Source of the DNA: an uncultured Candidatus Saccharibacteria bacterium
GTDB lineage: Bacteria > Patescibacteriota > Saccharimonadia > Saccharimonadales > JALRHH01
Direction: 5' to 3'
Assembly: GCA_964474995.1 (NCBI GenBank)
Contig: CAYYUY010000003.1
Location: 25,347-89,346, forward strand
DNA length: 64,000 nt
Every line of letters begins with the position of its first letter. The first letter of the stretch is position 1. Under the pieces are notes generated by a model, which worked only from the letters and a program-made list of their open reading frames with translations, had not been told where the DNA came from and ran no database searches. The position numbers were made by a program, and so were the translations under genes. Below, one piece after another: positions 21,066-54,216 of this stretch.

Positions 21066-21737
21066 CTATTTAGAATCTGTTAGAGAAGCGCTGTACAGCC
21101 CTTCGGTCTGGATATAGCGCCATACCGCATTTGCAAGCCCTGTAGGCCGTGTCCCGCTCCGAAGTTGCCTTCTGAGCGTTACTGAAGAAACATGCTCGAG
21201 CGGCGCTACAAATACGTTGTATTGAAATCCAAGTGCTCTCGTCTCGGCAATCACCGTCAAATGATCTTTGAGGTCTTTTAGCTTACCTTCTCTCACGCCA
21301 ACCGCAAATCGTACACCCGTCACTAGACCATCAACGCGCGGCCAATGGCTCAAGCGCTTAAATACATCATCACCCATGAGCACCACGACTTCCGCATCAG
21401 CAAAACGGGCCTGCAAGTGTGGCCAGGTTTCGAGTATGCTTGGCCGCGCATCGTCGAGAATCAAGACACCAAATAGCGGATCGTCTTTGATGGCTAGTTG
21501 CACCATGGCGATGCGATGAGAGGCGGCCTTCACACCTTGCTTGTGCCGAGGTCGAGGCTCAACCACAAAGAAAACCTTATCCAGCTTTGCTTCAGCAGCT
21601 GCAGCTCGTGCAAAAGCCAGGTGGCCATCATGAACTGGATCAAATGCCCCTGCGTAGATACCAACTCTTTTAATCTTGCGGCGCCCCTTCGCAACATTTC
21701 GTGACAGAACGACATTCAGTGCACATGAAGTGCCCAT
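21066..21737 (-). CDS. nadD: nicotinate-nucleotide adenylyltransferase
   Basis: VGIYAGAFDPVHDGHLAFA is the (H/T)xGH nucleotidyltransferase motif. The start is uncertain. The ATG at 21737 adds about 21 residues that overlap a Cys-rich ORF in another frame, and the conserved core begins near 21674. Confidence 0.75.
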   Translation of the reverse strand: MGTSCALNVVLSRNVAKGRRKIKRVGIYAGAFDPVHDGHLAFARAAAAEAKLDKVFFVVEPRPRHKQGVKAASHRIAMVQLAIKDDPLFGVLILDDARPSILETWPHLQARFADAEVVVLMGDDVFKRLSHWPRVDGLVTGVRFAVGVREGKLKDLKDHLTVIAETRALGFQYNVFVAPLEHVSSVTLRRQLRSGTRPTGLANAVWRYIQTEGLYSASLTDSK

Positions 21738-21834
21738 GCACCGGCGTCAGCGGATAGTGCCCACAAACTTCACAGAAAAACTCCGGCGAACGCTCTTTTA
21801 CCATTTCTTGGTAGATTTGATCTGTCTCATCCAT
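21670..21834 (-). CDS. zinc-ribbon small protein (54 aa), not in the ORF track
   Basis: My translation is MDETDQIYQEMVKERSPEFFCEVCGHYPLTPVHGHFMCTECRSVTKCCEGAPQD. It has a CxxC-x17-CxxC pattern plus a CC pair. It starts 9 nt after the stop of the 67-aa ORF, and its TAA overlaps an in-frame ATT of nadD. Confidence 0.4.
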   Translation of the reverse strand: MDETDQIYQEMVKERSPEFFCEVCGHYPLTPVHGHFMCTECRSVTKCCEGAPQD

Positions 21835-21843
21835 AGCTATATT

Positions 21844-22047
21844 TTACCGCTTTACGCTCACCAAACAACTCGGACACGCAATAGTCGTTGGCGTCAGAAT
21901 AGCGTCAACGAGTTGCTTGCAGAATGGACACGTCACACACGGCATGAGGTTGGGGTTGTCGGTAGCTATCCTATCGTGATCAATTGCACACAGACCATCA
22001 CATGCTGCTGCCTGGTGTTCATATTCTTGTACGGTCAAATTACTCAT
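21844..22047 (-). CDS. zinc-ribbon small protein (67 aa)
   Basis: Its Cys pattern is CDGLC...CVTCPFC...CPSC. It starts 15 nt after the stop of the 434-aa gene on the same strand. Confidence 0.55.
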   Translation of the reverse strand: MSNLTVQEYEHQAAACDGLCAIDHDRIATDNPNLMPCVTCPFCKQLVDAILTPTTIACPSCLVSVKR

Positions 22048-22062
22048 ATTGGCGAACCTTTC

Positions 22063-23367
22063 CTACTTTGTTGGGTCACGGCCGTTATCAAAGGCATGCT
22101 GACATTTCGTACAAATACTACAAGGACCAACCTTGGTCTCACCAGGGCGAGTTGGACACTTTTTGACGACACAGGTGCCCTTTTTCCATTTCCAACTTGA
22201 TTTGTTTTCTGGAGACTTATCGCCAAAAATACTTGTGCGTGCATCCTCAGGTGAAAGGCCCAGTAAGTCACCTGTGCCTTCGGCGACCGCCCCAGCAAGC
22301 GCACCACCGCAGCCCACCAGGCGTTCTTGCCTCGCTGCAGCACCGGCGTAGGCTCGTTGCATTTCAAATTCAAGCTGCGTAGAGCATACAGCATACGAAC
22401 CAGGCTCTGTCATTCTACTGACAGTTACTGGAGCGGCCCCAGCTTTGATACGGTCTTTCAAAGCCGCCCAAAAACCATATGTTAGCCGCTTTTTGGCCTC
22501 AATGTTTATCGGGTCTTCGTGGGCGAGCTGTTCGAGCTTACGCATGTAGTGATCAACAAGGTCAGGCTGAGAGTGGATAAACGCCCATGCTTCAGGCTCA
22601 TTTTTAGCCATACGACCAGCTCGAAATACTTCGCCATATAGCTGTTGCATAGCGTTGTCATACGTAGCAACAAGCTGGCCCGGAAGCTGTGCTTGTTGAT
22701 GCGCATCAAGACGAGCTTGATAGCGATATCCCAAGAAATCATCAGATGTCACATCAGCCGGAATAATAATGCCCTGCCGGGCAGCGACGGCACGAAACGC
22801 CTCGAGGTCACAGTTGTCGACTGACATACTCGTCACTTCAAGTTCAGTATCGGACTTTTTGGTAAATACATAGATGAAGCCGAGTAATCGGTCGGGCTGA
22901 TAGCCATCATCCTCGACGGCCGACTTACCGTACTCGCCAAGCGCTTCTTGCGGGAACGGAGAAAAAGACACGACCGTGTTCATACCGTTGCCTTGCATCA
23001 TGGCTTCCAGAACTTCGCCTTCGTGATAATTGTGAACAGCGCGGCGGACGTTGTAGTCACGGCCTGTTCGGCCAGCTTTACGCTCTGCGGCTTCTCGGCC
23101 GAATTCGAGTGTTTGGCGCAGTGTACTGCCCATTGTATTTACAAGGCCGTGTTCAGTCTGATGAAGTGTAAAGGTTGTTTCGAGTGGTGCGTTGATGCCT
23201 TCGGCAACAAAGGTGAGTTCTTCGTCATATGCCTGCTGCCGCGTTTCTGCGCTCACCTGACCATAGCGCTCAATATCTTGTCGCATTAGCCGGATAGAAG
23301 CCTGGACGTCAAATACTCGCCCCTCCTGGGCGGCGCAGTCACGTTCCATTACTAACCCTCTGTCCAT
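22063..23367 (-). CDS. hypothetical 434-aa protein with a C-terminal zinc ribbon
   Basis: A long ORF with clean coding character. I recognised no catalytic motif. The C-terminus is CVVKKC...CSICTKC. I use the ATG at 23367 (MDRGLVMERD...); the track start at 23463 is a TTG that would translate a terminator hairpin. Confidence 0.6.
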   Translation of the reverse strand: MDRGLVMERDCAAQEGRVFDVQASIRLMRQDIERYGQVSAETRQQAYDEELTFVAEGINAPLETTFTLHQTEHGLVNTMGSTLRQTLEFGREAAERKAGRTGRDYNVRRAVHNYHEGEVLEAMMQGNGMNTVVSFSPFPQEALGEYGKSAVEDDGYQPDRLLGFIYVFTKKSDTELEVTSMSVDNCDLEAFRAVAARQGIIIPADVTSDDFLGYRYQARLDAHQQAQLPGQLVATYDNAMQQLYGEVFRAGRMAKNEPEAWAFIHSQPDLVDHYMRKLEQLAHEDPINIEAKKRLTYGFWAALKDRIKAGAAPVTVSRMTEPGSYAVCSTQLEFEMQRAYAGAAARQERLVGCGGALAGAVAEGTGDLLGLSPEDARTSIFGDKSPENKSSWKWKKGTCVVKKCPTRPGETKVGPCSICTKCQHAFDNGRDPTK

Positions 23368-23401
23368 TAAAAATACCCTCACTCTCGGGCGAAAATGAGG
23401 G
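23368..23401 (-). terminator. intrinsic terminator or attenuator abutting the start codon
   Basis: The minus-strand RNA reads CCCUCAUUUUC-GCCC-GAGAGUGAGGG-UAUUUUUA-AUG. That is an 11-bp stem (2 G-U pairs), a tetraloop and a U-run. The GAGGG in the 3' arm is the only Shine-Dalgarno-like element. Confidence 0.65.
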
Positions 23402-23733
23402 CCTAGAAACCAGGGTCCGCACTCTTGCTCGAGAGATTTTACAGCTGTATCGGACTTTCCCAATTACTTGGTTTACCGTTGCGGCACAGTTCCTGATTTG
23501 CACAGGATTCCAGCGTTCTAATGTTAATTCCTAGTAGTGTATCACGTACACGACACGCTAGATGTAGTAGTTTTGCCCACATATCAACCGATTTCACATG
23601 TTTAATTCAAAGCGTGCAAATAGCGACTGATTGGATGCTATGCAAGGCACTGGCGAAGCACGGACTGAGCCGTATTTGTAATACGGTGATGGAGTACTGG
23701 AGCCGGTAACGCAGCAGAGCGCCAAGCCAGTGG
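23402..23733 (-). promoter_or_regulatory. structured non-coding leader (candidate riboswitch, attenuator or ncRNA)
   Basis: 332 nt with no convincing ORF. CACTGGC (23648-23654) pairs with GCCAGTG (23726-23732) and encloses the hairpin CCGTATT-tgt-AATACGG (23670-23686). CUCUCG (23430-23435) can pair with CGAGAG in the terminator (23382-23387). Confidence 0.3.
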
Positions 23734-24438
23734 CTATTTGGCCTGGAAACTTGAGAGGGCGTCTATAAGTATCGAATAATCCGGCTGAATGCTGTGATCG
23801 GTATAAAGGAAGAAGTACTTATGGGCACCTTTAGCACTGCCTGTGACCGTGACTTGATTGATGCCGTCGTGCGATGCCGTGCCTACTTGGTTTTCGACAA
23901 CGTTTGGCAGGTTACAGATGAAATCTACACCTTGCCAGCGAGCGGTAGTTGGACTGAGGTGAATCGCTTTATCGGTGTCGAGCGTCCCACCCTGGGTAAA
24001 CGTGGCACAGTTTTCGGACACATCACCGACTTCGAGCGCGTTGCCTCTGGCAGTGACTGGAATTGCGCGGTTGATGGAGATACTTGGCGGAATAGTATCA
24101 ACATAGAGCTTGAGCGTACGTTGGGCATTCGTCTTTTTGGTACCCGTCCAGGTAATACTTTGCTCCTGCGTGTTAGTTACGCGAGCAGTTTCCTTCCAGT
24201 CAGTTGGAAGACTAAATGTATAAAAAGGCTCATCGATGGTGCGTTTTTCGCCGTTATCACCAACAACTTGGCCGATAACACGATTAGTACCAGTAACTTC
24301 TGCGTTACCGTTCTTCCGAAGATCATTGACCACGAGCGCCACAATACCGGCAACAAGCAACAAGCACACCACCACTGCAACCAAAATATAGTGGTGATGT
24401 TTTACTGATCGACGGTTATAACGATATTTTGCACTCAC
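23734..24438 (-). CDS. hypothetical membrane-anchored extracytoplasmic protein
   Basis: 234 aa with an N-terminal TM helix (YILVAVVVCLLLVAGIVALVV). It has a GTG start with a GGTGG Shine-Dalgarno. Confidence 0.55.
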   Translation of the reverse strand: MSAKYRYNRRSVKHHHYILVAVVVCLLLVAGIVALVVNDLRKNGNAEVTGTNRVIGQVVGDNGEKRTIDEPFYTFSLPTDWKETARVTNTQEQSITWTGTKKTNAQRTLKLYVDTIPPSISINRAIPVTARGNALEVGDVSENCATFTQGGTLDTDKAIHLSPTTARWQGVDFICNLPNVVENQVGTASHDGINQVTVTGSAKGAHKYFFLYTDHSIQPDYSILIDALSSFQAK

Positions 24439-35946: not shown

Positions 35947-36573
35947 CTACCTTCTGGCAAGAATCAACCTCTTTAATGCTGGCATAGCAGTGTAGTCAGC
36001 TAACGGCCATTGCTTGTTCTTCCTGACAATGTAGGGTTTTTGTGCAAGTCTTAAGATGGGCAAGTCAGATAGACTATCACTGTATGCGCTCTCAACAACG
36101 GGCTCCTCATATATCTTCTTCAGACGTGACACCTTCTCTTCCCCACGGCAGTTTTCACCAATAATTGATCCTGTGGTGGGATTTACTTCAGTAGCTATCA
36201 ACGCCAAGGCATGCAGCTGGTCAAAAGCTGGGGTCAACAGGAATAAAGGAGAAGCCGAAATAATTACGTCTCTTTTGTGATTTGTTTGAATGTACCAATC
36301 TTTTATATTTTGATAATGACTCTTCCAGAACGAACTAACTGATCTCTCTATATCATTAATACCACACAAATATACAAAGAAGTTGCTCTTGAAAGTCGCT
36401 CTCTCCTCTATACGCAATGCATAGAGCAAGAAATGAAAGAACTGATATGGTAAAAACTTTAATAATAGTGGGTTGTGACGTATGCAAAATAAATAATAAT
36501 CAACTGTGCAATCACCATCATAGATAGTATGGTCAAAATCGTAAATATTTATGGGTTGTGCTAGCTTGTGCAT
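35947..36573 (-). CDS. HAD-IB-like phosphatase
   Basis: YDFDHTIYDGDC carries the DxDxT nucleophile motif. It starts 3 nt after the stop of the UbiA-family gene. Confidence 0.6.
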   Translation of the reverse strand: MHKLAQPINIYDFDHTIYDGDCTVDYYLFCIRHNPLLLKFLPYQFFHFLLYALRIEERATFKSNFFVYLCGINDIERSVSSFWKSHYQNIKDWYIQTNHKRDVIISASPLFLLTPAFDQLHALALIATEVNPTTGSIIGENCRGEEKVSRLKKIYEEPVVESAYSDSLSDLPILRLAQKPYIVRKNKQWPLADYTAMPALKRLILARR

Positions 36574-36576
36574 AAG

Positions 36577-37434
36577 CTAAATGTAAATTAAGAGTGTCAT
36601 TATTATCCCATATGCTAAGACCATAATTGGGAGATGTTTGTTTTCTAATAGGACACTTACTGGGTCACCCTCCGACTCAGATGACTCTACCGCAAGGCTA
36701 TATGCCATAACAATCATGATTACTACGGGAATAGTTAAAAACATTTTCTCGTGTTTTTGAGCAGGATCAACCGCCCACAAAGAATAGTACGTAACTGCTA
36801 GACCAAGACAAACGTACATGTTTTTATCAAGAAACTCTTGGTTGTAATGTTTATTCACCTTTCGTGTTTTTGTACCATTTGCTCGTATCTCATTGCGTCG
36901 TTTTCCAAGTGCAAGATAGAATGAGAATGCTAAAATCGCGAGATATAACCAATTTGATACATCTATGCTAATGGAGTACCCCCCATACAAAACACGAGTC
37001 ACAAATCCAAGTGAAAGTATTGAAACATCTACAATTGGCACGTTCTTAAGGCCAAAGCTATATAAGATATTTATTAATAGGTAGAACCCTATTAGGCCGA
37101 TTGCGGCAAATGAGAAGCCAGCAAAATATTGGAATATACTAGTGAGTGCGAGAAGTAAACCAATGAGCATGACTGCTTGGTGAGTACCAACAGCCCCAGA
37201 CGCAAGCGGTCGCTTTTTTTTAGTAGGGTGAAGGGCATCGAGCTTCTTATCCTGCAAATCATTAATGACATACACTGCGGATGCAGCCATACAGAATGCC
37301 AAGAATGAAAACATGGCCGGAATTGCATATGCAGAATTGAAAAGATTACCACTAAAGACAAGCGGCACAAAAATTAATATATTCTTTAGGTAGTGTTTTG
37401 GACGAATTAGTTGTAGGTATGGCTTGAGATTCAT
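36577..37434 (-). CDS. UbiA-family polyprenyl-phosphate 5-phosphoribosyltransferase (DPPR synthase-like)
   Basis: LIRPKHYLKNILIFVPLVF and VINDLQDKKLDALHPTKKKRPLASG (NDxxDxxxD) resemble the Rv3806c-type enzymes rather than the quinone prenyltransferases. It has about 8 TM helices. I use the ATG at 37434. Confidence 0.65.
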   Translation of the reverse strand: MNLKPYLQLIRPKHYLKNILIFVPLVFSGNLFNSAYAIPAMFSFLAFCMAASAVYVINDLQDKKLDALHPTKKKRPLASGAVGTHQAVMLIGLLLALTSIFQYFAGFSFAAIGLIGFYLLINILYSFGLKNVPIVDVSILSLGFVTRVLYGGYSISIDVSNWLYLAILAFSFYLALGKRRNEIRANGTKTRKVNKHYNQEFLDKNMYVCLGLAVTYYSLWAVDPAQKHEKMFLTIPVVIMIVMAYSLAVESSESEGDPVSVLLENKHLPIMVLAYGIIMTLLIYI

Positions 37435-37513
37435 AAGTATTTTTATTTCCCCGGAATATGTACATGATACATCGTTTACGACGCAACACATAGCTTACTA
37501 GGCTCCTGCGAAG

Positions 37514-37888
37514 CTAAGAAGATGCTGTTCGAGCAATAATGAAAACACCGATTATTATTATAACTATCCCGAGCCATCTCATTGGTGGAACCGTTTCACC
37601 AAGAAAGAATATCGCGAGAATGGGCGTCACCACATAAGTGAGCGCGAGAATGGGCTGAACATAACTAATATCAAGTTTTGTGAGCAAATAAAGCCAAGCT
37701 ACAGCGGACAAAAAATACAGAGCCATGCCACTCATAATTGTAAAGTTGGTCAAAAATTTACCAAAAAAGATTGCCACTTGGTGAGCTGAATTTAGTTGTA
37801 TATCCCCAATATTCCCCGCACCAATCTTCATCAGTAACGCACCAACTGCACCAAATAAGATTCCTACAATAAATAAGATTGTGTTCAT
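37514..37888 (-). CDS. small EamA/DMT-type four-helix membrane protein (ArnE/ArnF-like lipid-sugar flippase candidate)
   Basis: 124 aa with four TM helices, and EamA-like C-terminal sequence (GETVPPMRWLGIVIIIIGVFII). Confidence 0.55.
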   Translation of the reverse strand: MNTILFIVGILFGAVGALLMKIGAGNIGDIQLNSAHQVAIFFGKFLTNFTIMSGMALYFLSAVAWLYLLTKLDISYVQPILALTYVVTPILAIFFLGETVPPMRWLGIVIIIIGVFIIARTASS

Positions 37889-38070
37889 TTAATCCCCACT
37901 GCATCCTTAAATTCCGTAATCATATTTTCTGATTGTGTATGCATCTCGTTATACCATGCCACTCTACTCTGTGTTCTGTAAACAATGTAATACAAAAAAC
38001 CGAACGTCAAAACGAGTACTATAAATAAGATTGTGATTATATGATCTTTAATATACTTCATAAACTTCAT
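37885..38070 (-). CDS. small membrane protein
   Basis: 61 aa with one TM helix. It overlaps both neighbours, which suggests coupled translation. Confidence 0.4.
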   Translation of the reverse strand: MKFMKYIKDHIITILFIVLVLTFGFLYYIVYRTQSRVAWYNEMHTQSENMITEFKDAVGIK

Positions 38071-39922
38071 ACATAACGTCCTTATATATACTCTTGTATG
38101 CGTTATCTCGTTGGATCCATTTGTGCTCCTTGCTCGAATTACTAGTAAAGATATACCTCACACCCTGAGTCTTAACTTTTGAATACCACTCCGTACTATC
38201 TTTGGCTTGAATATATAACACCTTGTTTGAATAATCTGAGCGCCACAATGGATAGACATAATAGGGTGATGAATCGTAGGCCACTTTCTCTCCTGGCTGC
38301 ACCCTATTCTGGATGAACAGGTATGCAGTGCCTATACTATTTTGATAGGCCACACTGCCTCTTGGGTTGTGTGCTCGGTCACTATTGAGCTGGTCTCGTA
38401 TGACTTTGGGAGTGAAATTACAGAGTGTGAAAGTAGTCGCTATAACATTAATTACCAATAGGACTGCGACAAGTCGCGCAACAGTTCGCGCCCCGTCACC
38501 TAAATACGAGCAAACCAGGCCGAACGCCAGAATACCAACAGCAACTATAAAGATTATGTATCTCGTGTAATAATTTGCTGGGTATGCCATAAAGACAACT
38601 AGTAGCACTGTGCTGAGCGCTAGAAATAAATAGTTCCGTTTTTTTACTGCAATAATTATACCTACTAGAATTGAGGGCAATAAAAGAACAAACCAGATGG
38701 GTCCAAGGCCAGAAAAAGTTGAGTCATAGTTATACAAACATCCAAACCAGTCCTTCTGTTCTGTCCATACAAACCATAACCTCTGTAGCGAGCCTTCAGG
38801 CATCACAGAGAAATTTGAAAAGGCATGCGCAATAAATTCATTAAAACTCTGGCCAGGGAATATTTGAAATCCAAGTGCTTGCAGACCAAATGGGTACAAA
38901 GGGGTCTTGTAGGTAACAAAGTTCTTAACATACCAGTAGAAACCGAAAATCATTGGTAACCCTACAAGTAATAGACGTGTTCCATATTTCTTATAGCTTA
39001 AAACTAGTTTCCTTTTCTTAAATGTCACTATGTTTAAAAGTAGGAACGGCAATGTGGCAGCAACGAGCAATAGCCCCGTCGACTTAACAGATATTAGCAA
39101 TGAAAAGATGATGCCTATCAGCACAAGGTCAAGATTTGAGGGCTTTTTCCTAACCGACATTGCTAGTGCTGCCAAAAATAGTGAACAAAAAATAATATCG
39201 ACGTAGGTTGTTTTTGCTTGATTTATAACGATTGGCAGGAAAACAAGTAGTAATGAGCCAAACTTGGCGTCTCTTTTATTAACGCCGACTCTCAGCGCCA
39301 ACTCATATAGTGATACAACACCGAGAACCAAAAATGGCAATTGTGCAAGATCGGCCAAGGCTTCATTGTATGGAACTATGACATTCCACATCTGTATCAA
39401 TTCACCGCCCTTTGGGTATCCCGCAAGCCAAGGAATACTTGTCGGCAAGCTGGCAATACTGTGTGTCTGGATGGCATTAATGATGAAGGTCATGTGGTAT
39501 GCGTTGCCGTCAACGTCAATTACGGGAAACAATAATCCCAGGAACATAACCCAGGCTCCGATACCAAGTGCTAATATCAAAAGTGCCAAGAACCACCCAT
39601 CTTCCTTGATGCCCCTTATCCAACCCTTTCCAATCCGAATAAAGTCTCTGATATAACGCGAATACACATTGCTACCATACTTTTGCCTGACTAACAGAAA
39701 TATTACTGTCGCAATAAGGACATTAAGTAAAACAAGGTTAAGGCGCGTCAGTAACGACAACATTCCAAGGATAAATTCTGTTGATATGACCTGTGCGTAA
39801 AACAAAACGAAGGTACTTATAAACCTACGCCAGCCTTTTCTAGCCAATGAAAAAGACAATATATCAAAGCTCAAAATAATTGAAAAGCTGAGGACAACCC
39901 AAAGCAAAAAAGCATATATCAT
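38048..39922 (-). CDS. GT-C-fold polytopic glycosyltransferase candidate (ArnT/PMT-like)
   Basis: 624 aa with more than 12 TM helices. It has a DxD-type loop motif (FPVIDVDGNAYH) after the early helices and a soluble C-terminal domain of about 110 aa, which is GT-C architecture. Confidence 0.5.
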   Translation of the reverse strand: MIYAFLLWVVLSFSIILSFDILSFSLARKGWRRFISTFVLFYAQVISTEFILGMLSLLTRLNLVLLNVLIATVIFLLVRQKYGSNVYSRYIRDFIRIGKGWIRGIKEDGWFLALLILALGIGAWVMFLGLLFPVIDVDGNAYHMTFIINAIQTHSIASLPTSIPWLAGYPKGGELIQMWNVIVPYNEALADLAQLPFLVLGVVSLYELALRVGVNKRDAKFGSLLLVFLPIVINQAKTTYVDIIFCSLFLAALAMSVRKKPSNLDLVLIGIIFSLLISVKSTGLLLVAATLPFLLLNIVTFKKRKLVLSYKKYGTRLLLVGLPMIFGFYWYVKNFVTYKTPLYPFGLQALGFQIFPGQSFNEFIAHAFSNFSVMPEGSLQRLWFVWTEQKDWFGCLYNYDSTFSGLGPIWFVLLLPSILVGIIIAVKKRNYLFLALSTVLLVVFMAYPANYYTRYIIFIVAVGILAFGLVCSYLGDGARTVARLVAVLLVINVIATTFTLCNFTPKVIRDQLNSDRAHNPRGSVAYQNSIGTAYLFIQNRVQPGEKVAYDSSPYYVYPLWRSDYSNKVLYIQAKDSTEWYSKVKTQGVRYIFTSNSSKEHKWIQRDNAYKSIYKDVMYEVYEVY

Positions 39923-40059
39923 TCATGACTATGATACTACGACCAGAGTGTATCTGCCACATTAGCAATGAGACATTACTCACCCAACAGCACAAATGGC
40001 ATAGATATTTCATTATTTTTATTAATCAGTGCCGCCTATGCTGCTACAATTCTTACATT

Positions 40060-40725
40060 ATGAAACACACCAAACCTTCAAATATAACAAATGCAGAAAT
40101 TGTTGACTTCCTGTCAACCACCACATCTAATGCAACCTTCTTACAAAAACTAAAGATCAAGTATCGGCCATATGTATGCCCCTTCGATGAGCTATTAGAC
40201 TACGCACGGAATGAACAAAGTGCTTACGACATTGGCTGTGGTTCAGGACAATTTGCCGCCCTAGTTGCTGAGTTTACAGATGTAAAAACTATTAAAGGAA
40301 TTGAGATTGATCCAAGTCTGGTTGAGAACGCCAGGAAGATAAACGCCCGTTTTTCAAAGAAGAAAAAGATTTCTTTCTCTGTATTTGATGGCAATGTAAT
40401 CCCCGACGATATCGCAAAATACGATCTCATTTATATGATTGATGTCTACCACCACATTCCAACAAAAATTCGTGAAGCATTCATGCAACAGCTATACGAA
40501 AAAATGAAAGTGGGAGCCAAATTAATGTTTAAGGACATTAATGCTGCCTCGCCATTTCTCCCGTGCAACAAACTACACGATCTAGTATTTGCACAAGAGC
40601 TGAGCCATGAAATAAGCCACAGGAAAGCCACGAACTTCTTGAGCTCCCTTGGCTTTAAGATCATAGAGTCTCATAAAAAACGAGTTTTTGTATACCCACA
40701 CTACTTCATCCTAGCCCAAAAATAG
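40060..40725 (+). CDS. class I SAM-dependent methyltransferase
   Basis: YDIGCGSGQFAALVAE is the motif I SAM-binding loop. The ATG at 40060 lies 9 nt after TGcTACAAT (40042-40050). Confidence 0.7.
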   Translation: MKHTKPSNITNAEIVDFLSTTTSNATFLQKLKIKYRPYVCPFDELLDYARNEQSAYDIGCGSGQFAALVAEFTDVKTIKGIEIDPSLVENARKINARFSKKKKISFSVFDGNVIPDDIAKYDLIYMIDVYHHIPTKIREAFMQQLYEKMKVGAKLMFKDINAASPFLPCNKLHDLVFAQELSHEISHRKATNFLSSLGFKIIESHKKRVFVYPHYFILAQK

Positions 40726-40753
40726 TTCATGGTTCTTGGTTGAGATTAGCTTT

Positions 40754-42205
40754 TTATGCTTGTGGCTTGTAGGTGGAAACCATTTTCTTTAAACGGTCAC
40801 GAATTGAATCAAAATTCAACCCATCTTCTTCAATAGACTCCAGCATCAAGTTGTAGTTGTGTAGGAAGGCCATGCTGTCAAAGCTCATGTAGTTTTTGGT
40901 CCTGAAGATCTTCTTTACCGCAGTCGAGCTTATTTCCTCTTCTTCGACAAGAACCTCTTCATAAAGCTTCTCACCTGGACGCAAGCCTATAATCTTTATC
41001 TTTATGTCCTCTTCAGGGACATATCCATTAAGAGTAATCAACAGCTTGGCAAGGTCATAAATCTTTATTGATTCACCCATATCAAGCACAAATAGATCGT
41101 TATTTTCTCCCATGACCCACGTCTGAAGCACAAGGTGTACTGCTTCTGGAATAGTCATGAAGAAGCGAGTAACGTCTTTGTGCGTGACAGTAACCGGTCC
41201 ACCCTTCTCAATCTGTTTTTCAAAAAAGGGAATCGCGCTACCATTACTGTTGATAACGTTGCCAAATCGGACCGCGCAAAAGATAGTATCCTTTTGGCTC
41301 TCGGCTAATATATGAATAATCTTTTCGGCCGCTCGCTTAGTCGCACCCATAATATTAGTAGGGTTTACTGCTTTATCGGTAGACACGAGTATGAACTTGT
41401 TGACCTTGTGTTTAATAGCCAGCTCAGCAACGGTCTTGGTGCCAAGGATATTGTTCTTGATTGCCTCTGCTGGATTAGCCTCCATTAATGGTACGTGCTT
41501 ATATGCAGCCGCGTGAAAGACAGTATTTGGCTTATACTCGTTCATGATCTGATTGAGCTTCTTGCGGTCTTTTACGTCACCAATCACAAATTCATAGTCG
41601 CCGTCTGGATTGCTCTCAAGCAACTGGTTACGTAGATCGAATATCCCGTTTTCCCACCAATCATAAAATACAAGCTTTTGGGTTCCGTGGGCAGCAAGTT
41701 GTCTGCTTAGCTCGGAGCCAATTGATCCAGCTGCTCCAGTAATAAGTATTGTTTTGCCTTTGGCATAGTCGCTAATTTCTTGCTGGTCAGACTTCAGGAT
41801 TTCACCACCCAATAAGTCTTCTGCCTTAACTCGACGAATATACTTTAGGTAGTCCTTATCAAAATCTTGGAGTAACACTTCTGAGAGTCGCGGTAGTATC
41901 TTATATACAAGTTTTAGCCCCATGGTGCTTTCAACGATGTTACGAATCGTTTTTCCTCGCTCAGATGGAACAGCAATGAATAGTTCTTCGATATTAAGTT
42001 TTTTGACCAATTCTGGCAAATCAGCAACGGCTCCCATGACCTTCACACCATCAATTGCCGTACCTTGCTTACTCTTGTTGTCGTCAACAAAGCCAATAAC
42101 ATCGAATGGAGATTCTAGGTCCGTCTTGAGGTCGCCCAATATTAATTCGCCAGCCTTTCCGGCGCCTACTATAAGTACTGGTACGGTTCTACTTTGATTC
42201 ATCAA
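40754..42205 (-). CDS. CapD/PglF/WbpM-type nucleotide-sugar 4,6-dehydratase (soluble form)
   Basis: LITGAAGSIGSEL, HAAAYKHVPLME and STDKAVNPTNIMGATKR are extended-SDR polysaccharide-biosynthesis motifs. Confidence 0.8.
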   Translation of the reverse strand: MMNQSRTVPVLIVGAGKAGELILGDLKTDLESPFDVIGFVDDNKSKQGTAIDGVKVMGAVADLPELVKKLNIEELFIAVPSERGKTIRNIVESTMGLKLVYKILPRLSEVLLQDFDKDYLKYIRRVKAEDLLGGEILKSDQQEISDYAKGKTILITGAAGSIGSELSRQLAAHGTQKLVFYDWWENGIFDLRNQLLESNPDGDYEFVIGDVKDRKKLNQIMNEYKPNTVFHAAAYKHVPLMEANPAEAIKNNILGTKTVAELAIKHKVNKFILVSTDKAVNPTNIMGATKRAAEKIIHILAESQKDTIFCAVRFGNVINSNGSAIPFFEKQIEKGGPVTVTHKDVTRFFMTIPEAVHLVLQTWVMGENNDLFVLDMGESIKIYDLAKLLITLNGYVPEEDIKIKIIGLRPGEKLYEEVLVEEEEISSTAVKKIFRTKNYMSFDSMAFLHNYNLMLESIEEDGLNFDSIRDRLKKMVSTYKPQA

Positions 42206-43064
42206 CTATTTCCTTTACGATAAGCTCAAGATTTTTTACTGGCTTCCAGCCGAATTCATCATGAATCCTTGATATATCTGCCTGACACGCGATGAGCGAT
42301 TCGGGCAGATCCGATGTTTCAATAATCTTTGGTCTCTCTGATAGTTTACTATTTTTTAACAGCAAGTCTACGATCTCAGCATTTGTGCTGGCTATTCCAG
42401 ACCCAATATTATAAACGGCGTGCTTTGGCTCTCCCTCAATAAGCAACCTGTAGGCTACGGCAATATCACTCACTGCAATGTAGTCTCGCCTTGAATCAAG
42501 CCGGCTAATTTCTATACGATCAGCTTTGCCCGTCTGCACATCGTTAATCTGATCAAGCAGTTTGGGGATTAAGAACTTCTGTTGCATGCCAGGCCCCAAA
42601 GGATTAAAAACTCTCGCCACTACGACTTGTACGTTCATTTCTTTGCCAACCCGAAGAGCCACTAGCTCTTCGCGAACTTTTGAAAGTGCATATGCATTTG
42701 TGGCATTCAGGGGTGCGTCTTCCGATACAGGGACTTTAGATACCTGACCGTATTCGCCAGCCGAACCAGTTATAATCACCCTTTTAACAGCTACGCCGGC
42801 CAATTTTACGCCGGCCAGTATATTCTCCGTAAACCGTGTGTTGTTGTCATATTCAACATCTGCCCCTACGAGTCCCGCACAATTGATGACCACCTCAGGG
42901 CTGTAATGGCCCAAGTATTCTACAATAGCCTGTTTATCCAAAAGGTCTATACGCTCGCTGTTGCCAGGATTAATGCCTGTCAGCACCTTGTATCCTGCTA
43001 ATTCAAGCTCACTCACTACCGCTCTGCCTATAAACCCACTTGAGCCAAAGACTGCTATTGTCAT
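42189..43064 (-). CDS. NAD-dependent sugar epimerase/reductase (SDR)
   Basis: It has VFGSSGFIGRAV (GxxGxxG) and a YALSK catalytic YxxxK motif. Confidence 0.75.
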   Translation of the reverse strand: MTIAVFGSSGFIGRAVVSELELAGYKVLTGINPGNSERIDLLDKQAIVEYLGHYSPEVVINCAGLVGADVEYDNNTRFTENILAGVKLAGVAVKRVIITGSAGEYGQVSKVPVSEDAPLNATNAYALSKVREELVALRVGKEMNVQVVVARVFNPLGPGMQQKFLIPKLLDQINDVQTGKADRIEISRLDSRRDYIAVSDIAVAYRLLIEGEPKHAVYNIGSGIASTNAEIVDLLLKNSKLSERPKIIETSDLPESLIACQADISRIHDEFGWKPVKNLELIVKEIVDESK

Positions 43065-45367
43065 TTGATGTGTCGCTTATATAGCTTTTTATAATTTGCT
43101 CCGAGAATCCTATTTGAATACTGATTTTCAACCTTTTTTCGGCCTTTGGCTTTTATGTCATTTAGTTTTGTTATGTCTGCCACAAGTAAGTTGACAGTTT
43201 CGGCTATCTCGGCCTCTGACCCTGGTGTTATCACATAACCATCAACACCCGACTCAATGACATCAGCAACCGCCCCTACGTCGGAGGCTATAACAGCAAC
43301 TTCCATAGCCATGGCTTCAAGAATTGATAAAGGAAATCCTTCGATGGAAGATGGGAGGACAAATATATCGGCGGCGCTCAAATAACTTGCGACGGCTGAC
43401 TGGTAACCAAGATATGTGATGCTTTCTGTCTCGGCGCCTTTTATGAGCTTTTCGACTTCTGGTCGCATTGGCCCATCACCAATAATGTAGAATTTTACAT
43501 TATTTGCTTCATTCTGATCGATAACAAGTTTTGCTGCTTCGATAAACACATCTGGGTTTTTCTCTTCTGACAGCCTACCGACAAAGAACACTGCTATATC
43601 ATCAGTACCCAGCTTAAGTTGCGTCCGTTGTGTATCACGGTTAAAGAGCGTTGGGCTAAATTCGTTATAGGCGTCGATGCCGTTTGGTATAACCGTAACT
43701 ACCTCACCGGGCTTGAGCCTCTTTTCAAAGCTTGTTGCAACAGCTTGATTGTCGGTCACATACTCATCAATATAGGGTTGGTATTTCACGGCACCAGCCA
43801 CGTATTCAGGAACCCTGTCATTAAACAAGGTCAGGACAACTTTTAGTTCTGGATGTCTAGCTTTTAGTTCCGGCAACATATCAAATACGAAGCCGTTATG
43901 AACAATGTGAAGGATACTGATATCTCTTGTACTGATGTAGTTCGACATAAATTCAATGTAAAGCCTGGAGTCTTCAAACAAGTTAGGAAGGTGATAAATA
44001 TACGGTGATATTTTACTGAACTTATTTTCCCATTCATTTTTTGACTTCAAGCCGGTAACAAAGGTGATATTAAACGTGTCTTGTAGTTCTCGACAATAGT
44101 TGTGAACCAGTGTTTCAGCCCCACCAAACGTCATCCATGACATAGTCATCATGACGTTCGGTTTGTCCATTTGTTGCTTGTATTGACTACTCCGGTCCAT
44201 GTTCACAAACGTAGTCTTTGGTAACGCAATGTCCTTCTTTGACTGCCGTAACGTCAGTAACTGCTTAACACGCTTCCTGTACTCTGGGTGTAGCGTCTTA
44301 ATACGCTTGAGATTATTCCAGTGCACATCTTTATCATCGATATATCGAGATTGCAATGAGGTACGGTACACGAAAAGCTCTTCAGGTATTAACTTACCCC
44401 AAAAGCCTCTTTCGCTAAGACTAAGCCAAAACTCCCAATCTTCATAACCTATATCCGACTTATATCCATCGGTTGCTTCCCACGCTTCTTTCCTGAAAGC
44501 TGCAGCAGTAATAACCATATTATTTGTAAGCAGCTCTAGTGGATTATATGGCGCGTTCTTATGAACTTCATTGACTACACCAAAGACATCCATGTGTGAA
44601 GTGACGAGAGCAACATCTGGCCGTGCTTCAAGTACGCATAGTGCTTTTTCAATAAATGTCGGGACTAGAATGTCGTCAGAATCTAAGCAAATTATATATT
44701 TTCCCGATGCTTCTCGAATGCCGTTGTTACGTGCCTTGGCGACACCCTGGTTTTCTTGGTTAATAATCCGTGCTTTCAGGCCATCCAAATCAAGATGGTT
44801 AAGTTTTTCAACACTTTCCTTCTCAGGCGATCCGTCATTGACGATAATAACCTCAAAATCCCTGAATGTTTGCGTCTGTAATGATGCAATAGTGTCATCT
44901 ATAGTATCTGCGCGATTGTAATAGGGCACAACGACGCTGACCAGCTGTTGCGTGTCAGCAATCTTGTGATTTTCTAGCTCCGTAACGCTAACTTGAACTA
45001 TGGGACGACTCTTTGAAACGCCTTTTTTTACCTTCCTATATGACTGCTTCACAGCAGTTCGTACAGGTTCAGGAAATGCTGGTGCCACAGTGACCCTAGT
45101 TTTTTGGAAAGCCTTCTTGCCAACATGAACAGGAATGTTCTTTACGCCACCCGCGTTATTAATTAATGTTCCAGTGCGATCCCTAACCTTAATTATTTTA
45201 CCCAATACTCGAGAGTTTTTTAGTCCATGCAGCTCGTCTCGAACTTTGAATAACTGTCCCCTCAGCCTGAATATTTCTTCGTTGAGTTCAGCAATTCTAG
45301 CATCTGACTCGGTCGCCTTAATATTTTGTGATAGTACAGGCTTTTGAGACTTACTTTTATCTGTCAT
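43061..45367 (-). CDS. bifunctional GT2 plus GT4 glycosyltransferase with an N-terminal coiled coil
   Basis: The GT2 part is VSVVVPYYNRADTIDDTIASLQTQTFRDFEVIIVNDGS...DSDD. The GT4 part is LPSSIEGFPLSILEAMAMEVAVIASDVG. The N-terminus is heptad-like (IAELNEEIFRLRGQLFKVRDEL). Confidence 0.75.
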   Translation of the reverse strand: MTDKSKSQKPVLSQNIKATESDARIAELNEEIFRLRGQLFKVRDELHGLKNSRVLGKIIKVRDRTGTLINNAGGVKNIPVHVGKKAFQKTRVTVAPAFPEPVRTAVKQSYRKVKKGVSKSRPIVQVSVTELENHKIADTQQLVSVVVPYYNRADTIDDTIASLQTQTFRDFEVIIVNDGSPEKESVEKLNHLDLDGLKARIINQENQGVAKARNNGIREASGKYIICLDSDDILVPTFIEKALCVLEARPDVALVTSHMDVFGVVNEVHKNAPYNPLELLTNNMVITAAAFRKEAWEATDGYKSDIGYEDWEFWLSLSERGFWGKLIPEELFVYRTSLQSRYIDDKDVHWNNLKRIKTLHPEYRKRVKQLLTLRQSKKDIALPKTTFVNMDRSSQYKQQMDKPNVMMTMSWMTFGGAETLVHNYCRELQDTFNITFVTGLKSKNEWENKFSKISPYIYHLPNLFEDSRLYIEFMSNYISTRDISILHIVHNGFVFDMLPELKARHPELKVVLTLFNDRVPEYVAGAVKYQPYIDEYVTDNQAVATSFEKRLKPGEVVTVIPNGIDAYNEFSPTLFNRDTQRTQLKLGTDDIAVFFVGRLSEEKNPDVFIEAAKLVIDQNEANNVKFYIIGDGPMRPEVEKLIKGAETESITYLGYQSAVASYLSAADIFVLPSSIEGFPLSILEAMAMEVAVIASDVGAVADVIESGVDGYVITPGSEAEIAETVNLLVADITKLNDIKAKGRKKVENQYSNRILGANYKKLYKRHIK

Positions 45368-45493
45368 ATTAGCCTAGTATACCAATTTATTACATGGTTG
45401 ATTGTATAAATCTCAAGTTTCGTTTCTTGGTCATATTTTTCTTTCATAGCCCTGTGGTATCATGAGCTAATAAGTACAGTAGGGGAAGCTTGA

Positions 45494-46525
45494 ATGTTTA
45501 GTGGAAAGACTTTGCTAATTACTGGTGGTACGGGCTCGTTCGGCAATGTTGTTTTAGAGCGTTTCCTTGAGACGGATGTAAAGGAAATCCGTATTTTCTC
45601 ACGTGATGAGAAAAAACAAGATGACATGCGGCGCCGATATAACAACCCAAAACTATCATTCCATATCGGAGATGTGCGCAATATCGAAAGTGTTCGTAGG
45701 TCTATGAGAGGTGTTGATTATATATTCCATGCGGCCGCACTCAAACAAGTACCATCATGTGAATTCTTCCCCATGGAAGCTGTCCAGACAAATATAATTG
45801 GTACTGATAATGTTTTATCTGTTGCAGCTGAATTTGATGTCAAACGAGTTGTGTGCCTTTCAACTGATAAAGCAGCCTACCCGATCAACGCCATGGGTAT
45901 CAGCAAAGCAATGATGGAACGGGTCATCGCTGCGCGTGCTCGTGATCTCGGAGAAGCAGGTAAAACAGTCGTCTGTTGCACACGTTATGGCAACGTTATG
46001 GCCTCACGCGGCTCGGTTATACCCCTATTTATTGAGCAGATAAAAGCAGGTAAAGACATCACGATTACTGAACCGAAGATGACTCGCTTCTTGATGAATC
46101 TTAATGAGGCTGTTGACCTTGTACTCTTTGCATTTGAAAACGCTAAGCCAGGTGATTTATTCGTTCAGAAAGCACCTTCGGCAACAATTGGTGACCTTGC
46201 TCAAGCCTTGATTCAACTATTCGATTCAAGATCAAAAGCTACTGTTATAGGGGCCCGACATGGTGAAAAAAAATACGAAACACTTATGACACGTGAGGAA
46301 AGTGCAAAAGCCGAGGAAATGGGCGAGTACTTCCGAATTCCGGCAGACACGAGAGATCTTAATTATGGTAAGTATCTGAATGATGGCTCTACAGAAATAT
46401 CTGAGGCAACCGAGTATAACTCAGAGAACACGACTATTCTTGACATTGAAGGTATAAAAAAGAGGTTGTTGGAGGTGGATTTTGTTATCGACGAAATGAA
46501 AGGAAGCAGGGCACATCTGACATGA
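45494..46525 (+). CDS. UDP-GlcNAc 4,6-dehydratase/5-epimerase (FnlA/CapE/WbjB-type)
   Basis: The N-terminus KTLLITGGTGSFGNVVLERFLETDVKEIRIFSRDEKKQDDMRRRYNNPKLSFHIGDVRN is nearly the FnlA/CapE consensus as I recall it. Confidence 0.85.
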   Translation: MFSGKTLLITGGTGSFGNVVLERFLETDVKEIRIFSRDEKKQDDMRRRYNNPKLSFHIGDVRNIESVRRSMRGVDYIFHAAALKQVPSCEFFPMEAVQTNIIGTDNVLSVAAEFDVKRVVCLSTDKAAYPINAMGISKAMMERVIAARARDLGEAGKTVVCCTRYGNVMASRGSVIPLFIEQIKAGKDITITEPKMTRFLMNLNEAVDLVLFAFENAKPGDLFVQKAPSATIGDLAQALIQLFDSRSKATVIGARHGEKKYETLMTREESAKAEEMGEYFRIPADTRDLNYGKYLNDGSTEISEATEYNSENTTILDIEGIKKRLLEVDFVIDEMKGSRAHLT

Positions 46526-48629: not shown

Positions 48630-48697
48630 CGATGCTCCTTTTGTATTTGAAATAATGATAAGCTTATTTTACTAGAGTATAGGTTAAGTAGGAAGAT

Positions 48698-49657: not shown

Positions 49658-49669
49658 AAGAGCTTTGAC

Positions 49670-51657: not shown

Positions 51658-51714
51658 GTAGCATTATTTTACACTAATTTGCCCCTAGAGCACACCAGGT
51701 CATACAATAGTGTG

Positions 51715-53980: not shown

Positions 53981-53985
53981 TAACG

Positions 53986-54216
53986 CTATTGAAGCGCTAC
54001 GTGACCGACAGATTCTAGCGTAGCCATGCGAGACTCTACCTCACCAAGTGACGAAGTGTGGAGTGATTCAAGACTGTCATAACCAAGTACCGCTACAAGT
54101 TCTTCTCGGTAAGCTAGTGTCGCCAGACTGTGCTTATACACAGCATCCTGGTCAACTTGTAGACCGTGAGCTTCAACAAATTGCTTTAATGATCCTGGGT
54201 TGCTCTCGAGTGCCAT
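53986..54216 (-). CDS. hypothetical small protein
   Basis: 76-aa ORF with an ATG start, 5 nt downstream of the ligase-like gene. I recognised no motif. Confidence 0.35.
   Translation of the reverse strand: MALESNPGSLKQFVEAHGLQVDQDAVYKHSLATLAYREELVAVLGYDSLESLHTSSLGEVESRMATLESVGHVALQ

Follow-up and report, generated by a model that had tools for sequence, protein, structure and literature searches.

A conserved operon of the Saccharibacteria, predicted from its leader RNA to be repressed by vitamin B12, has as its main product a protein from a large uncharacterised family without a recognisable fold. It was found in a stretch of DNA of 64 kb, the whole of which is called the window below, and contains the gene of this 434-residue protein, named protein X here, and the genes of two small proteins of 67 and 54 residues. 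A NadD-like gene probably belongs to it too. Like the other Patescibacteria, Saccharibacteria live as epibionts with extremely reduced genomes and are unable to make B12; the genome in which X is kept has only about 1 Mb. Relatives carry an AdoCbl-dependent ribonucleotide reductase (RNR) and a PduO adenosyltransferase beside genes of the X family. The X family is a new protein family added to the B12 regulon, and it appears to mark an important and entirely uncharacterised step, either in the B12 economy or in the supply of DNA precursors. It combines an apparently new fold and a distinctive Cys loop with a swappable zinc ribbon, and the operon gives a testable handle on the host dependence of CPR bacteria.

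Organization of the operon

The features of the operon are collected in Table 1. The first-pass annotation, made from the sequence alone, described the three open reading frames, the 15-nt gap, the Cys-rich ends and the strand shared with nadD correctly. A longer ORF of 466 residues that starts at TTG 23463 was rejected as protein X in favor of the ATG at 23367, because the TTG lies inside the riboswitch and the N-terminal extension is translated riboswitch.

Table 1. Features of the X operon and its leader in the window.
Feature	Position	Strand	Remarks
Cobalamin riboswitch aptamer	23432..23533	-	AdoCbl-II/Cbl-II-like four-way junction core
Small hairpin CUCU-CGAGCA-AGAG	23422..23435	-	Just 3' of the aptamer; corresponds to the conserved CUCC-CGAGCA-GGAG element
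Predicted terminator and SD-sequestering hairpin	23368..23402	-	Stem 23402-23375, 12 bp, then AUUUUUA; terminator scan, MFE and centroid folds
Protein X gene, 434 aa	22063-23367	-	C-terminal part ...CVVKKCPTRPGETKVGPCSICTKCQ...
Cys-Gly loop V-G-C353-G354-G	22303..22317	-	Tip of predicted β-hairpin E349-352/E355-358; family hallmark
Putative C-terminal zinc-ribbon tail of X, type A	22066..22194	-	WKWKKGxCxVxxCPTRPGxTKVGPCSxCxxCQ
67-aa ORF	21844-22047	-	Starts 15 nt downstream of the X gene
54-aa Cys/His-rich ORF	21670-21834	-	
NadD-like nucleotidyltransferase	21066-21737	-	Overlaps the 54-aa gene; same strand as all three ORFs

The product of the NadD-like gene matches the Pfam family CTP_transf_like with 62.6 bits (cut-off 21) and reaches 103.3 bits with TIGR00482, for which the cut-off is 112.45. 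The nadD gene is found 3' of X and on the same strand in 40 of 53 loci, and a terminator scan detected no strong terminator in the interval between X and nadD. It is probably co-transcribed with the 54-aa gene and the rest of the X operon. NadD is a syntenic neighbor, not a demonstrated functional partner, of protein X. Genes for NrdJ, PduO, DUF4430 and NrdD are all absent from the 64-kb window.

The cobalamin riboswitch

By structure and position, the leader of the operon is a cobalamin riboswitch, located 5' of X and with a coupled expression platform. The structured leader and control by a cis-acting RNA had been suspected earlier, but the RNA had not been recognized, and its identity as a B12 riboswitch is the key to interpreting the operon. 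The aptamer carries a lineage-specific additional hairpin of 15 nt (CCAAGUAAUUGG). This insertion lowers the score of the window leader against Rfam RF01689, which is 31.5 bits (E 1.6e-4) at a gathering score of 36.5. Orthologous leaders exceed the gathering score with 50, 42.5, 41.9 and 40.5 bits, among others. A covariance model built from eight orthologous leaders that pass gathering, R1, gives the window leader 79.6 bits. The same model matches 52 of the 53 sources exactly once each, and every match lies 5' of X on its strand; these 52 are all the sources that contain sequence upstream of X. X is found under the riboswitch at its locus in each of them, and it is the only gene for which this holds.

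The core of the aligned leaders has 36 invariant columns. Across the 52 leaders 96.2% of the base-pair cells are paired, and compensatory changes occur in 9 of the 16 pairs. None of 500 shuffles equalled the observed score, and controls in which the alignment was slid were 19-50% paired.

The CUCC-CGAGCA-GGAG hairpin is kept in nearly all of the 52 leaders. Judging by its sequence, it looks like a regulatory hairpin of the P13 type, and its complementarity or likeness to the 3' arm of the terminator suggests that it can act as an antiterminator. The terminator hairpin ends 7 nt before the ATG of X, and the GAGGG in its 3' arm is likely to be the Shine-Dalgarno sequence. Most orthologous loci have an equivalent hairpin and U-run, ending 2-8 nt before the ATG. 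Since the leader thus contains an intrinsic terminator in which the ribosome-binding site is hidden as well, B12 binding is predicted to turn the operon OFF. A literature search found no paper that links Saccharibacteria or CPR bacteria with a cobalamin riboswitch.

Protein X and its family

A profile search found 858 cluster representatives homologous to protein X, and the X gene has a syntenic position in Saccharibacteria; the earlier designation 'orphan' therefore does not hold. A scan of genome contigs with the X subfamily alignment produced 49 loci, all from Saccharibacteria, and a scan with a pattern from close homologs gave no match. The family is large and, as far as these searches indicate, restricted to Saccharibacteria; other metagenomic bacteria with small genomes have diverged relatives of it. 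The sequence of X diverges fast among homologs.

Residues E56, S136, G155, R160, D184, Y236-D237, G251-R252 and R306 are invariant or nearly so in the alignments. In the Cys-Gly loop, C353 is kept in 98% and G354 in 97% of 143 X sequences, and a G(G)GCGG or SCPGG version of the loop is present in the diverged groups. The AlphaFold model of X (pLDDT 89.4, pTM 0.80) has an α/β core joined to the C-terminal tail by a flexible linker that is modeled with low confidence and contains a conserved [YF]G[ND]K motif. The tail is modeled as strands 395-397 and 411-413 and a helix, with pLDDT values of 88-94, and its cysteines C399, C404, C416, C419 and C422 are conserved. Across the family the tail is swapped among at least six ribbon types, several of which end in a terminal Cys. 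Protein X appears to be cytoplasmic, as its sequence, read by eye, has no evident signal peptide or membrane segment.

The statement of the first-pass annotation that the 434-residue protein has no recognizable function stands, AlphaFold and Foldseek included. Foldseek comparison of the model with the PDB found no fold match (best E 0.26, TM ~0.1) and no RNR among the matches, and comparison with BFVD found no fold match either. The fold is apparently new, to judge from the model. Nothing significant was found for X, or for ten other family members, in Pfam, NCBIfam, PHROGs and PADLOC (the best PHROGs match of X, at E 0.2, is noise), and a profile search of PDB sequences gave no match. Exact look-ups of the window proteins returned no names or context.

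The small Cys-rich proteins

The 67-residue protein contains 7 Cys in the arrangement CxxxC ... CxxCxxC ... CxxC. Its gene is present in 11 of 53 loci, always directly after X and with 55-78% identity, and it has 231 database homologs, all of about 67 residues. Over residues 34-65 it shares 47-53% identity with the C-terminal ribbons of P0103 and P0156, and by sequence it is a putative free-standing form of the 'type C' zinc-ribbon tail. This homology to the fused ribbon of some family members bears out the supposed functional link of the zinc-ribbon partners with X. The 54-residue protein has rubredoxin-like knuckles, CxxCG ... CPxC, with an invariant HxH and CC(E/K)G. Its gene occurs in 19 of 53 loci, and there are 269 database homologs of 54-82 residues. 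Neither small protein has a significant match in Pfam, PHROGs, NCBIfam or PADLOC.

In both genes the differences from orthologs are concentrated at codon position 3; the 67-aa gene has 122/90/330 at positions 1/2/3, the 54-aa gene 52/38/100. They are real genes under purifying selection, but facultative ones. The proposal of a dedicated module holds in so far as the operon is conserved and controlled in cis by RNA and the position of X is conserved in Saccharibacteria; the small partners are not constant and are absent beside most orthologs of X.

The X tail and both small proteins match the two-knuckle (CxxC/CPxC) zinc-ribbon pattern and are predicted metal sites; the alignments of the two small proteins have invariant Cys columns. 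Such paired knuckles are common to HypA-type and topoisomerase-I-type ribbons and to rubredoxin, and some sources automatically name homologs of the small proteins 'HypA/HybF Zn finger' or 'ssDNA-binding Zn-ribbon topoisomerase 1'. They differ from the known zinc ribbons in that no Pfam model reaches its threshold, that additional ligands are conserved (HxH and CC in the 54-residue protein, CxxxC in the 67-residue protein), and that their context is limited to the X operon.

Association with B12 genes in relatives

In the Saccharibacteria locus L037 a single riboswitch is followed by genes for DUF4430 (57.5 bits), DUF6580 (148.9 bits), X and NadD, and the stop of the DUF6580 gene overlaps the start of X. 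In L067 the same syntenic site holds the riboswitch, DUF4430 and DUF6580. Transcobalamin-type B12 binders have DUF4430 as their C-terminal domain (PMC4350170); a literature search on DUF6580 found nothing relevant. These two loci constitute the link to uptake; most Saccharibacteria loci, that of the window included, have X without an adjacent DUF4430 or DUF6580 gene.

In at least nine metagenomic loci, a diverged X gene directly follows nrdJ, pduO and the riboswitch. The nrdJ product matches Ribonuc_red_lgC (432 bits) and TSCPD, and the pduO product matches Cob_adeno_trans (99.6 bits). The diverged groups have the Cys-loop and ribbon architecture of X, and hhalign relates them to X with E values of 1e-15 to 1e-25 (groups 6, 7 and 12) and 4e-6 to 6e-5 (groups 2, 4, 8, 9 and 10). 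Groups 4 and 5 have DUF4430 just upstream of the riboswitch. Neighbors of X genes include NrdJ, thymidylate kinase (Tmk), DHODH and NUDIX. In L057 the same riboswitch core is located upstream of the class III RNR, NrdD. Proteins of 580 residues ('MFFERLK') and of 620-676 residues are also encoded behind this core; both were rejected as X homologs at hhalign probabilities of at most 1%.

The operons for B12 acquisition (btuB/btuFCD, ECF-CbrT and those containing DUF4430) have a leader RNA of the same class (Rfam clan CL00101, with RF00174 and RF01689) as the X operon and the same OFF logic, with a terminator and RBS-sequestering hairpin, that is predicted for the X leader. In L037, X likewise shares its operon with genes for a DUF4430 binder and for a DUF6580 membrane protein. 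In contrast to these operons, the constant regulated gene here encodes a soluble protein without a recognisable fold rather than a transporter, and the window operon has no transporter gene and no ATPase or TonB-type component.

Proposed function of protein X

The favored reading, to which a probability of roughly 40% is given, is that X is a cytoplasmic factor for cobalamin capture or processing (trafficking) that is induced by B12 scarcity. Protein X would be produced when B12 is scarce and would take over the corrinoid imported by the DUF4430 binder and the DUF6580 permease. It would hold or process the corrinoid, plausibly via the thiolate of its invariant cysteine, and would hand it to a PduO-type adenosyltransferase, from which it would pass to the AdoCbl-dependent class II RNR. 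The zinc-ribbon tail and the free metal-knuckle proteins of 67 and 54 residues might be docking or electron-transfer modules. The fast evolution of X is more in keeping with a binding protein or chaperone than with a core catalytic enzyme.

Ligation of a thiolate to cobalt is well established in B12 trafficking proteins (BtuM, MMADHC). The working principle proposed for X would be like that of MMACHC/CblC, MMADHC/CblD and BtuM with its cysteine ligation: a protein in the cytoplasm or close to the membrane accepts incoming cobalamin, brings a cysteine thiolate to the cobalt and passes the cofactor on, first to an adenosyltransferase and from there to the client enzyme. The gene order nrdJ–pduO–X would correspond to client, adenosyltransferase and chaperone. 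Unlike X, none of these proteins has a zinc ribbon, and X has neither sequence nor fold likeness to them nor a flavin/nitroreductase-like domain.

Several observations speak against a role in capture or processing. Protein X matches no known B12-binding, adenosyltransferase or CblC-like family; PF02310 B12-binding, the PduO/CobA/EutT adenosyltransferases and DUF4430 all gave no match at E<=1, and the alignment contains no DxHxxG B12-binding motif and no invariant His. The neighbors NrdJ, Tmk, DHODH and NUDIX equally suit a role in deoxynucleotide supply, and the three invariant Arg and the acidic triad could equally form a nucleotide or Mg site. Furthermore, a B12-processing factor might be expected to be ON when B12 is plentiful.

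Alternative explanations

The main rival, possible though unlikely, is that X is a B12-sparing bypass that supplies deoxynucleotides when B12 is scarce and NrdJ idle. The bypass could be salvage, for example by a Mg-dependent nuclease acting on imported ssDNA and guided by a ssDNA-type zinc ribbon; much less likely, it is a new thiol/radical-based reductase that, like RNRs, relays reducing equivalents through its Cys-rich C-terminal tail. There are known cases of B12-independent RNRs under the control of a B12 riboswitch, such as nrdABS in Streptomyces (PMC12528414). Like nrdABS and the nrdD of L057, X would be a B12-repressed gene in users of AdoCbl-NrdJ, and in several lineages it stands directly beside nrdJ. 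The acidic triad, the three Arg and an invariant Tyr would suit such a function, as would the nucleotide-related neighbors. Salvage is also consistent with the ssDNA-binding name that one source gives to a 67-residue homolog and with the natural competence of Saccharibacteria (10.1101/2023.05.02.539146). However, X has no fold or sequence likeness to any RNR, nuclease or kinase, it has a single invariant Cys in its core and neither a radical-SAM nor a glycyl-radical motif, it diverges far faster than essential dNTP-supplying enzymes, and the co-transcription with DUF4430–DUF6580 in L037 suggests uptake instead.

Many NrdJ and NrdD proteins have a Cys-rich zinc-binding tail, as is predicted for X, and the Cys-Gly loop, linker and often Cys-ending ribbon parallel the C terminus of the neighboring NrdJ. 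Homology of the X tail to the TSCPD/Cys-rich tail of NrdJ was considered and is unsupported: the hhalign comparison (gIsCg against sGCGg) is not significant (probability 3.5%, E 0.012, 11 columns), and X has no Pfam TSCPD match. The likeness is architectural only.

It is improbable that X assists the B12/NrdJ system through thiol-redox chemistry rather than as a cobalamin carrier, for example by reducing cob(III)/cob(II)alamin or as a dedicated reductant shuttle, with the two small proteins as electron carriers. Such a helper would account for the invariant Cys on an exposed hairpin, for the flexible Cys-rich tails that are often Cys-terminated, and for the rubredoxin-like CxxCG and CPxC with HxH and CC in the 54-residue protein. 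PduO requires reduced cobalamin, and X adjoins pduO. Nevertheless, X contains no flavin, NAD or Fe-S motif and does not resemble known reductases, the small proteins are missing from most loci, and it would be odd for B12 to repress an enzyme of which it is the substrate.

A role outside B12 chemistry is distinctly improbable. Protein X would then be an effector of B12 status that, for example by binding nucleic acid or acting on the cell cycle, slows replication or division once B12 is gone and dNTPs are limiting. Zinc ribbons that vary are typically found in modules that dock to nucleic acids or proteins, and one X group is positioned 3' of ftsQ-ftsA-ftsZ-tmk, but only 3 loci, all from one lineage, have this context. 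The set of conserved residues, polar and charged, resembles a ligand or catalytic site, and the B12-handling neighbors would be left unexplained.

It is highly improbable that X is a new, B12-independent functional analog of RNR, induced through the riboswitch when NrdJ cannot work. This analog would serve Saccharibacteria and other CPR bacteria, and its features would be the Cys-tipped hairpin and an RNR-like, Cys-rich swinging tail. X has no match to the RNR domains of Pfam and NCBIfam and lacks the RNR barrel, the ATP-cone and the glycyl-radical motif.

Base composition

A G+C-rich, horizontally acquired module, defence-like or mobile for example, is refuted by the fixed syntenic position across Saccharibacteria and by composition, and X has no PADLOC or PHROG match and no relative in 2.9 million viral contigs. 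The compositional deviation that had been claimed is slight: the GC content of the operon region is 51.3%, compared to 48.3±1.8% for windows of the same size at 1-36 kb (96th percentile). The GC3 of the X gene, 0.476, is not elevated, and the housekeeping neighbors are equal in GC (nadD 0.518, LexA-like 0.527, GlmS 0.515). The 60-nt line at 22261 does contain the 41 G+C that had been counted by hand, and codes for an Ala/Gly-rich stretch.

Gene layout

The reading frames for the 434-aa protein (X), the 67-aa protein and the 54-aa protein lie on the minus strand in agreement with the first-pass annotation, and the Cys clusters match its description (Table). A 466-aa version of X, starting from TTG 23463, is an artefact because the added N-terminal part falls within the leader RNA. 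Two mechanically called reading frames in the same region are likewise the riboswitch in translation (…NCAATV…, CUGUGCCGCAACGGU), and the database protein P0101 of the X family, perhaps also P0156, carries a spurious N-terminal extension of this origin.

Features of the operon and its leader
Feature	Position	Strand	Remark
NadD-like gene	21066-21737	-	5' end overlapped by 54-aa ORF
54-aa ORF	21670-21834	-	begins 9 nt after 67-aa ORF
67-aa ORF	21844-22047	-	begins 15 nt after X
X, 434 aa	22063-23367	-	read from ATG
GC-rich hairpin and U-run	stem 23402-23375	-	terminator-type; followed by AUUUUUA-AUG, a few nt before the ATG
Small hairpin	23435-23422	-	conserved form CUCC-CGAGCA-GGAG; just downstream of the aptamer
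AdoCbl-II (RF01689) match	23438-23527	-	
Mechanical ORF	23339-23503		translated riboswitch
Mechanical ORF	23368-23463		translated riboswitch
234-aa protein	23734-24438		single N-terminal membrane anchor, no family match; just upstream of riboswitch

The nadD-like gene has a single canonical start, ATG 21737. Read from there, it shares 68 nt with the 54-aa gene (21670-21737) and gains a 21-aa N-terminal extension that is absent from orthologues. An ATT codon overlapping the stop of the 54-aa gene (GATTAAAAG) would yield the typical MKRVGIYAG N-terminus. Together these features suggest a non-canonical start or translational coupling. Of 53 related loci, 21 have the 234-aa membrane-anchored protein at the same place.

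The riboswitch leader

The structured leader that had been noticed upstream of X exists and belongs to a known class. It matches AdoCbl-II in Rfam with 31.5 bits (E 1.6e-4), just below the gathering score. Leaders of orthologous genes scored above gathering for RF01689 or RF00174 at 3 of 3 loci and then at 11 of 16. An alignment of eight leaders has 36 invariant core positions and shows a 15-nt extra hairpin in the leader of the window, which accounts for its lower Rfam score. A covariance model built from this alignment was used to search about 513 kb from 53 sources. Exactly one match was found in 52 of them, always upstream of the X gene and on its strand; the remaining source is a contig lacking the upstream sequence. 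Across the 52 leaders 96.2% of the base-pair cells are paired, and compensatory changes occur in 9 of the 16 pairs. No shuffle reached the observed score, and slid controls dropped to 19-50% paired. By structure and position the leader is assigned to the cobalamin riboswitch clan, with the window's own Rfam score below threshold.

In most orthologous leaders the hairpin and U-run likewise stop a few nucleotides before the ATG. GAGGG, in the 3' arm of this terminator-type hairpin, is probably the Shine-Dalgarno sequence. The small hairpin is similar in sequence to this 3' arm and thus could act as an antiterminator that competes for the 5' arm. With an aptamer, a conserved hairpin and a terminator covering the ribosome-binding site, the leader is built like a B12 OFF switch for transcription as well as translation. 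We infer from this anatomy that it would switch in this manner and that B12 would repress the operon.

Protein X and its family

A word-indexed search returned just 11 relatives of X. An exhaustive profile search yielded 858 representatives of clusters at 50% identity, with 244 below 1e-30, and X is thus not the orphan that it had been taken for. All 49 X loci from species-representative genomes are in Saccharibacteria/Saccharimonadales MAGs. The X gene has a fixed place in the gene order: GtrA, a LexA-like protein, BacA and/or a 230-aa membrane-anchored protein on the upstream side, followed by riboswitch, X, the small ORFs where present and nadD, and then by a convergent Na+/H+ exchanger.

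The statement that X has no recognisable function has withstood the searches. No model in Pfam, NCBIfam, PHROG or PADLOC matches X or ten of its relatives, the X-family profile matched none of the PDB sequences, and no relatives were found in viral contigs. X is a member of none of the families tested, which were RNR, the B12-binding domain, adenosyltransferases, DUF4430, and defence and phage families. The AlphaFold model, made with a 143-sequence alignment, is confident (pLDDT 89.4, pTM 0.80). Foldseek comparison of this model with the PDB and BFVD gave nothing at E<=0.001 (best TM about 0.1), and the predicted fold is apparently new. Judged by its sequence and relatives, X is a soluble, lineage-specific protein.

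Conserved positions of X include E56, S136, G155, R160, D184, Y236-D237, G251-R252 and R306. Cys353-Gly354, kept at 97-98%, is located on the tip of a predicted β-hairpin, which is followed by a low-confidence linker with a [YF]G[ND]K motif and by a predicted zinc ribbon forming the C-terminus. The ribbon is interchangeable: depending on the family member, the same Cys loop is followed by one of at least six unrelated ribbon types, and several of these types have a Cys at the last or penultimate position.

The small proteins

Differences from homologues are dominated by third codon positions in both small genes (122/90/330 for the 67-aa and 52/38/100 for the 54-aa gene), and stand-alone homologues of similar length number 231 and 269, respectively, in the database. 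This pattern identifies both ORFs as real genes. The exact window sequences are absent from a collection of 15 billion proteins in which the exact sequence of X is present, so the small genes were probably never called in the source assembly.

The ribbon of the 67-aa protein, residues 34-65, is 47-53% identical to the fused C-terminal ribbons of two X relatives, P0103 (E 1e-9) and P0156 (E 4e-11). Such a fusion-type link shows the 67-aa protein to be a working partner of X. In the 54-aa protein, knuckles of rubredoxin type (CxxCG, CPxC) are accompanied by invariant HxH and CC(E/K)G motifs. The first-pass annotation proposed a dedicated, undescribed module under cis-RNA control with these proteins as partners. 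The module stands; the constancy of the partners does not. Homologues directly follow X in 11 of 53 loci (67-aa, 55-78% identity) and 19 of 53 loci (54-aa), which makes them facultative accessories.

A multi-pass membrane protein of about 238 aa with no Pfam match sits between the 54-aa gene and nadD in several Saccharibacteria, with overlapping stops and starts (L002 7519-8235, also L001, L010, L011, L014, L030, L034 and L038); it does not occur in the window. A Phd/ParE toxin-antitoxin pair comes after X at two loci (L063, L115).

Other genes behind the riboswitch core

Scanning metagenomes for the 25-nt core of the riboswitch gave 100 loci, at which the gene directly downstream was classified. 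X was recognised by HMM in 26 of these. A set of Pfam-less proteins is built in the same way as X: the core has an ISPxG...GYP strand motif, the loop reads G(G)GCGG or SCPGG, and a linker leads to a zinc ribbon of the X types. Within this diverged set, homology to X is supported by profile-profile comparison for groups 6, 7 and 12 (E 1e-15 to 1e-25) and probably for groups 2, 4, 8, 9 and 10 (single comparisons, E 4e-6 to 6e-5). Homology of two further groups to X was unsupported.

Small DUF4430 proteins are directly behind the core at 8 loci. In B12 binders of the transcobalamin type, DUF4430 forms the C-terminal domain (PMC4350170). In one Saccharibacteria locus (L037) the genes for DUF4430 (57.5 bits), DUF6580 (148.9 bits), X and NadD all follow a single riboswitch, the X start overlapping the DUF6580 stop; another (L067) has riboswitch, DUF4430 and DUF6580 at the same syntenic site. 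At least nine loci have the order nrdJ, PduO-type adenosyltransferase (99.6 bits), riboswitch, diverged X, where nrdJ encodes a class II RNR (Ribonuc_red_lgC, 432 bits, plus TSCPD). A second arrangement around diverged X has DUF4430 just upstream of the riboswitch, with VKOR-DHODH and NUDIX genes downstream, and a third has ftsQ-ftsA-ftsZ-tmk upstream. X is linked physically and genomically with B12 binders, with a candidate B12 permease, with the adenosyltransferase and with the AdoCbl-dependent RNR.

Several genes behind the core are of other kinds. At L068 (862-12335; also L087, L092, L149) it precedes a protein of about 580 aa ('MFFERLK…'), whose homology to X was unsupported, followed by a protein of about 1500 aa, a PrgI-like protein and a VirB4/TraG-type ATPase. 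As a set these genes resemble a T4SS-like cluster of monoderm type that B12 apparently controls. A Pfam-less protein of 620-676 aa (L085, L101, L128), internally repetitive and hydrophobic at its C-terminus, holds exactly the place that X has in sister loci, ahead of VKOR-DHODH, NUDIX and DUF998, and has no detectable similarity to X. At L116 (1455-2400), probably from another phylum, the core is upstream of a prepilin-type protein (N-terminal FTLIELLVV).

Possible function of X

The system would be a B12-riboswitch-repressed operon for B12 scarcity, whose constant effector is an undescribed family with an apparently new fold. A literature search found no paper linking Saccharibacteria or CPR bacteria to cobalamin riboswitches or to the X family. 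Our best model, tentative at a probability of roughly 0.4, is that X is produced under B12 scarcity, captures or processes incoming corrinoid in the cytoplasm, plausibly via the invariant cysteine thiolate, and hands it to PduO and NrdJ. Docking or electron transfer would be the part played by the swappable ribbon and by the small proteins with metal knuckles. That X diverges quickly is more in keeping with a binder or chaperone than with a core enzyme.

The main rival, which is less likely, takes X for a B12-sparing bypass in the supply of deoxynucleotides. It has a precedent in B12-independent RNRs under riboswitch control (PMC12528414), as with the class III RNR NrdD directly behind the core at one locus (L057), and it agrees with the nucleotide-metabolism genes adjoining X. 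The C-terminus of NrdJ (…LVGISCGQ…linker…CPDCG…CFKC…KCS) is strikingly like that of X, but this likeness is without statistical support. It is quite improbable that X is a redox helper for cobalamin reduction, and more doubtful still that it is a cell-cycle or nucleic-acid factor responding to B12 status.

Base composition

A horizontally acquired orphan module is refuted. The G+C richness that had been read as a signal is slight: the operon region, at 51.3%, ranks at the 96th percentile of same-size windows from the first 36 kb (48.3±1.8%). The X gene has no raised GC3 (0.476), and the flanking housekeeping genes are just as GC-rich. The 60-nt line at 22261 does contain 41 G+C, as counted earlier, but it codes for an Ala/Gly-rich segment. 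The composition of the operon gives no hint of foreign origin.

Elsewhere in the window, GC drops clearly over a block of about 18 kb (36000-54000), from about 0.48 ahead of the block to 0.38-0.44 within it. By their N-terminal motifs its ORFs resemble sugar epimerases/dehydratases, glycosyltransferases and an ABC-2 exporter pair, and the block may be a surface-polysaccharide island of different composition.
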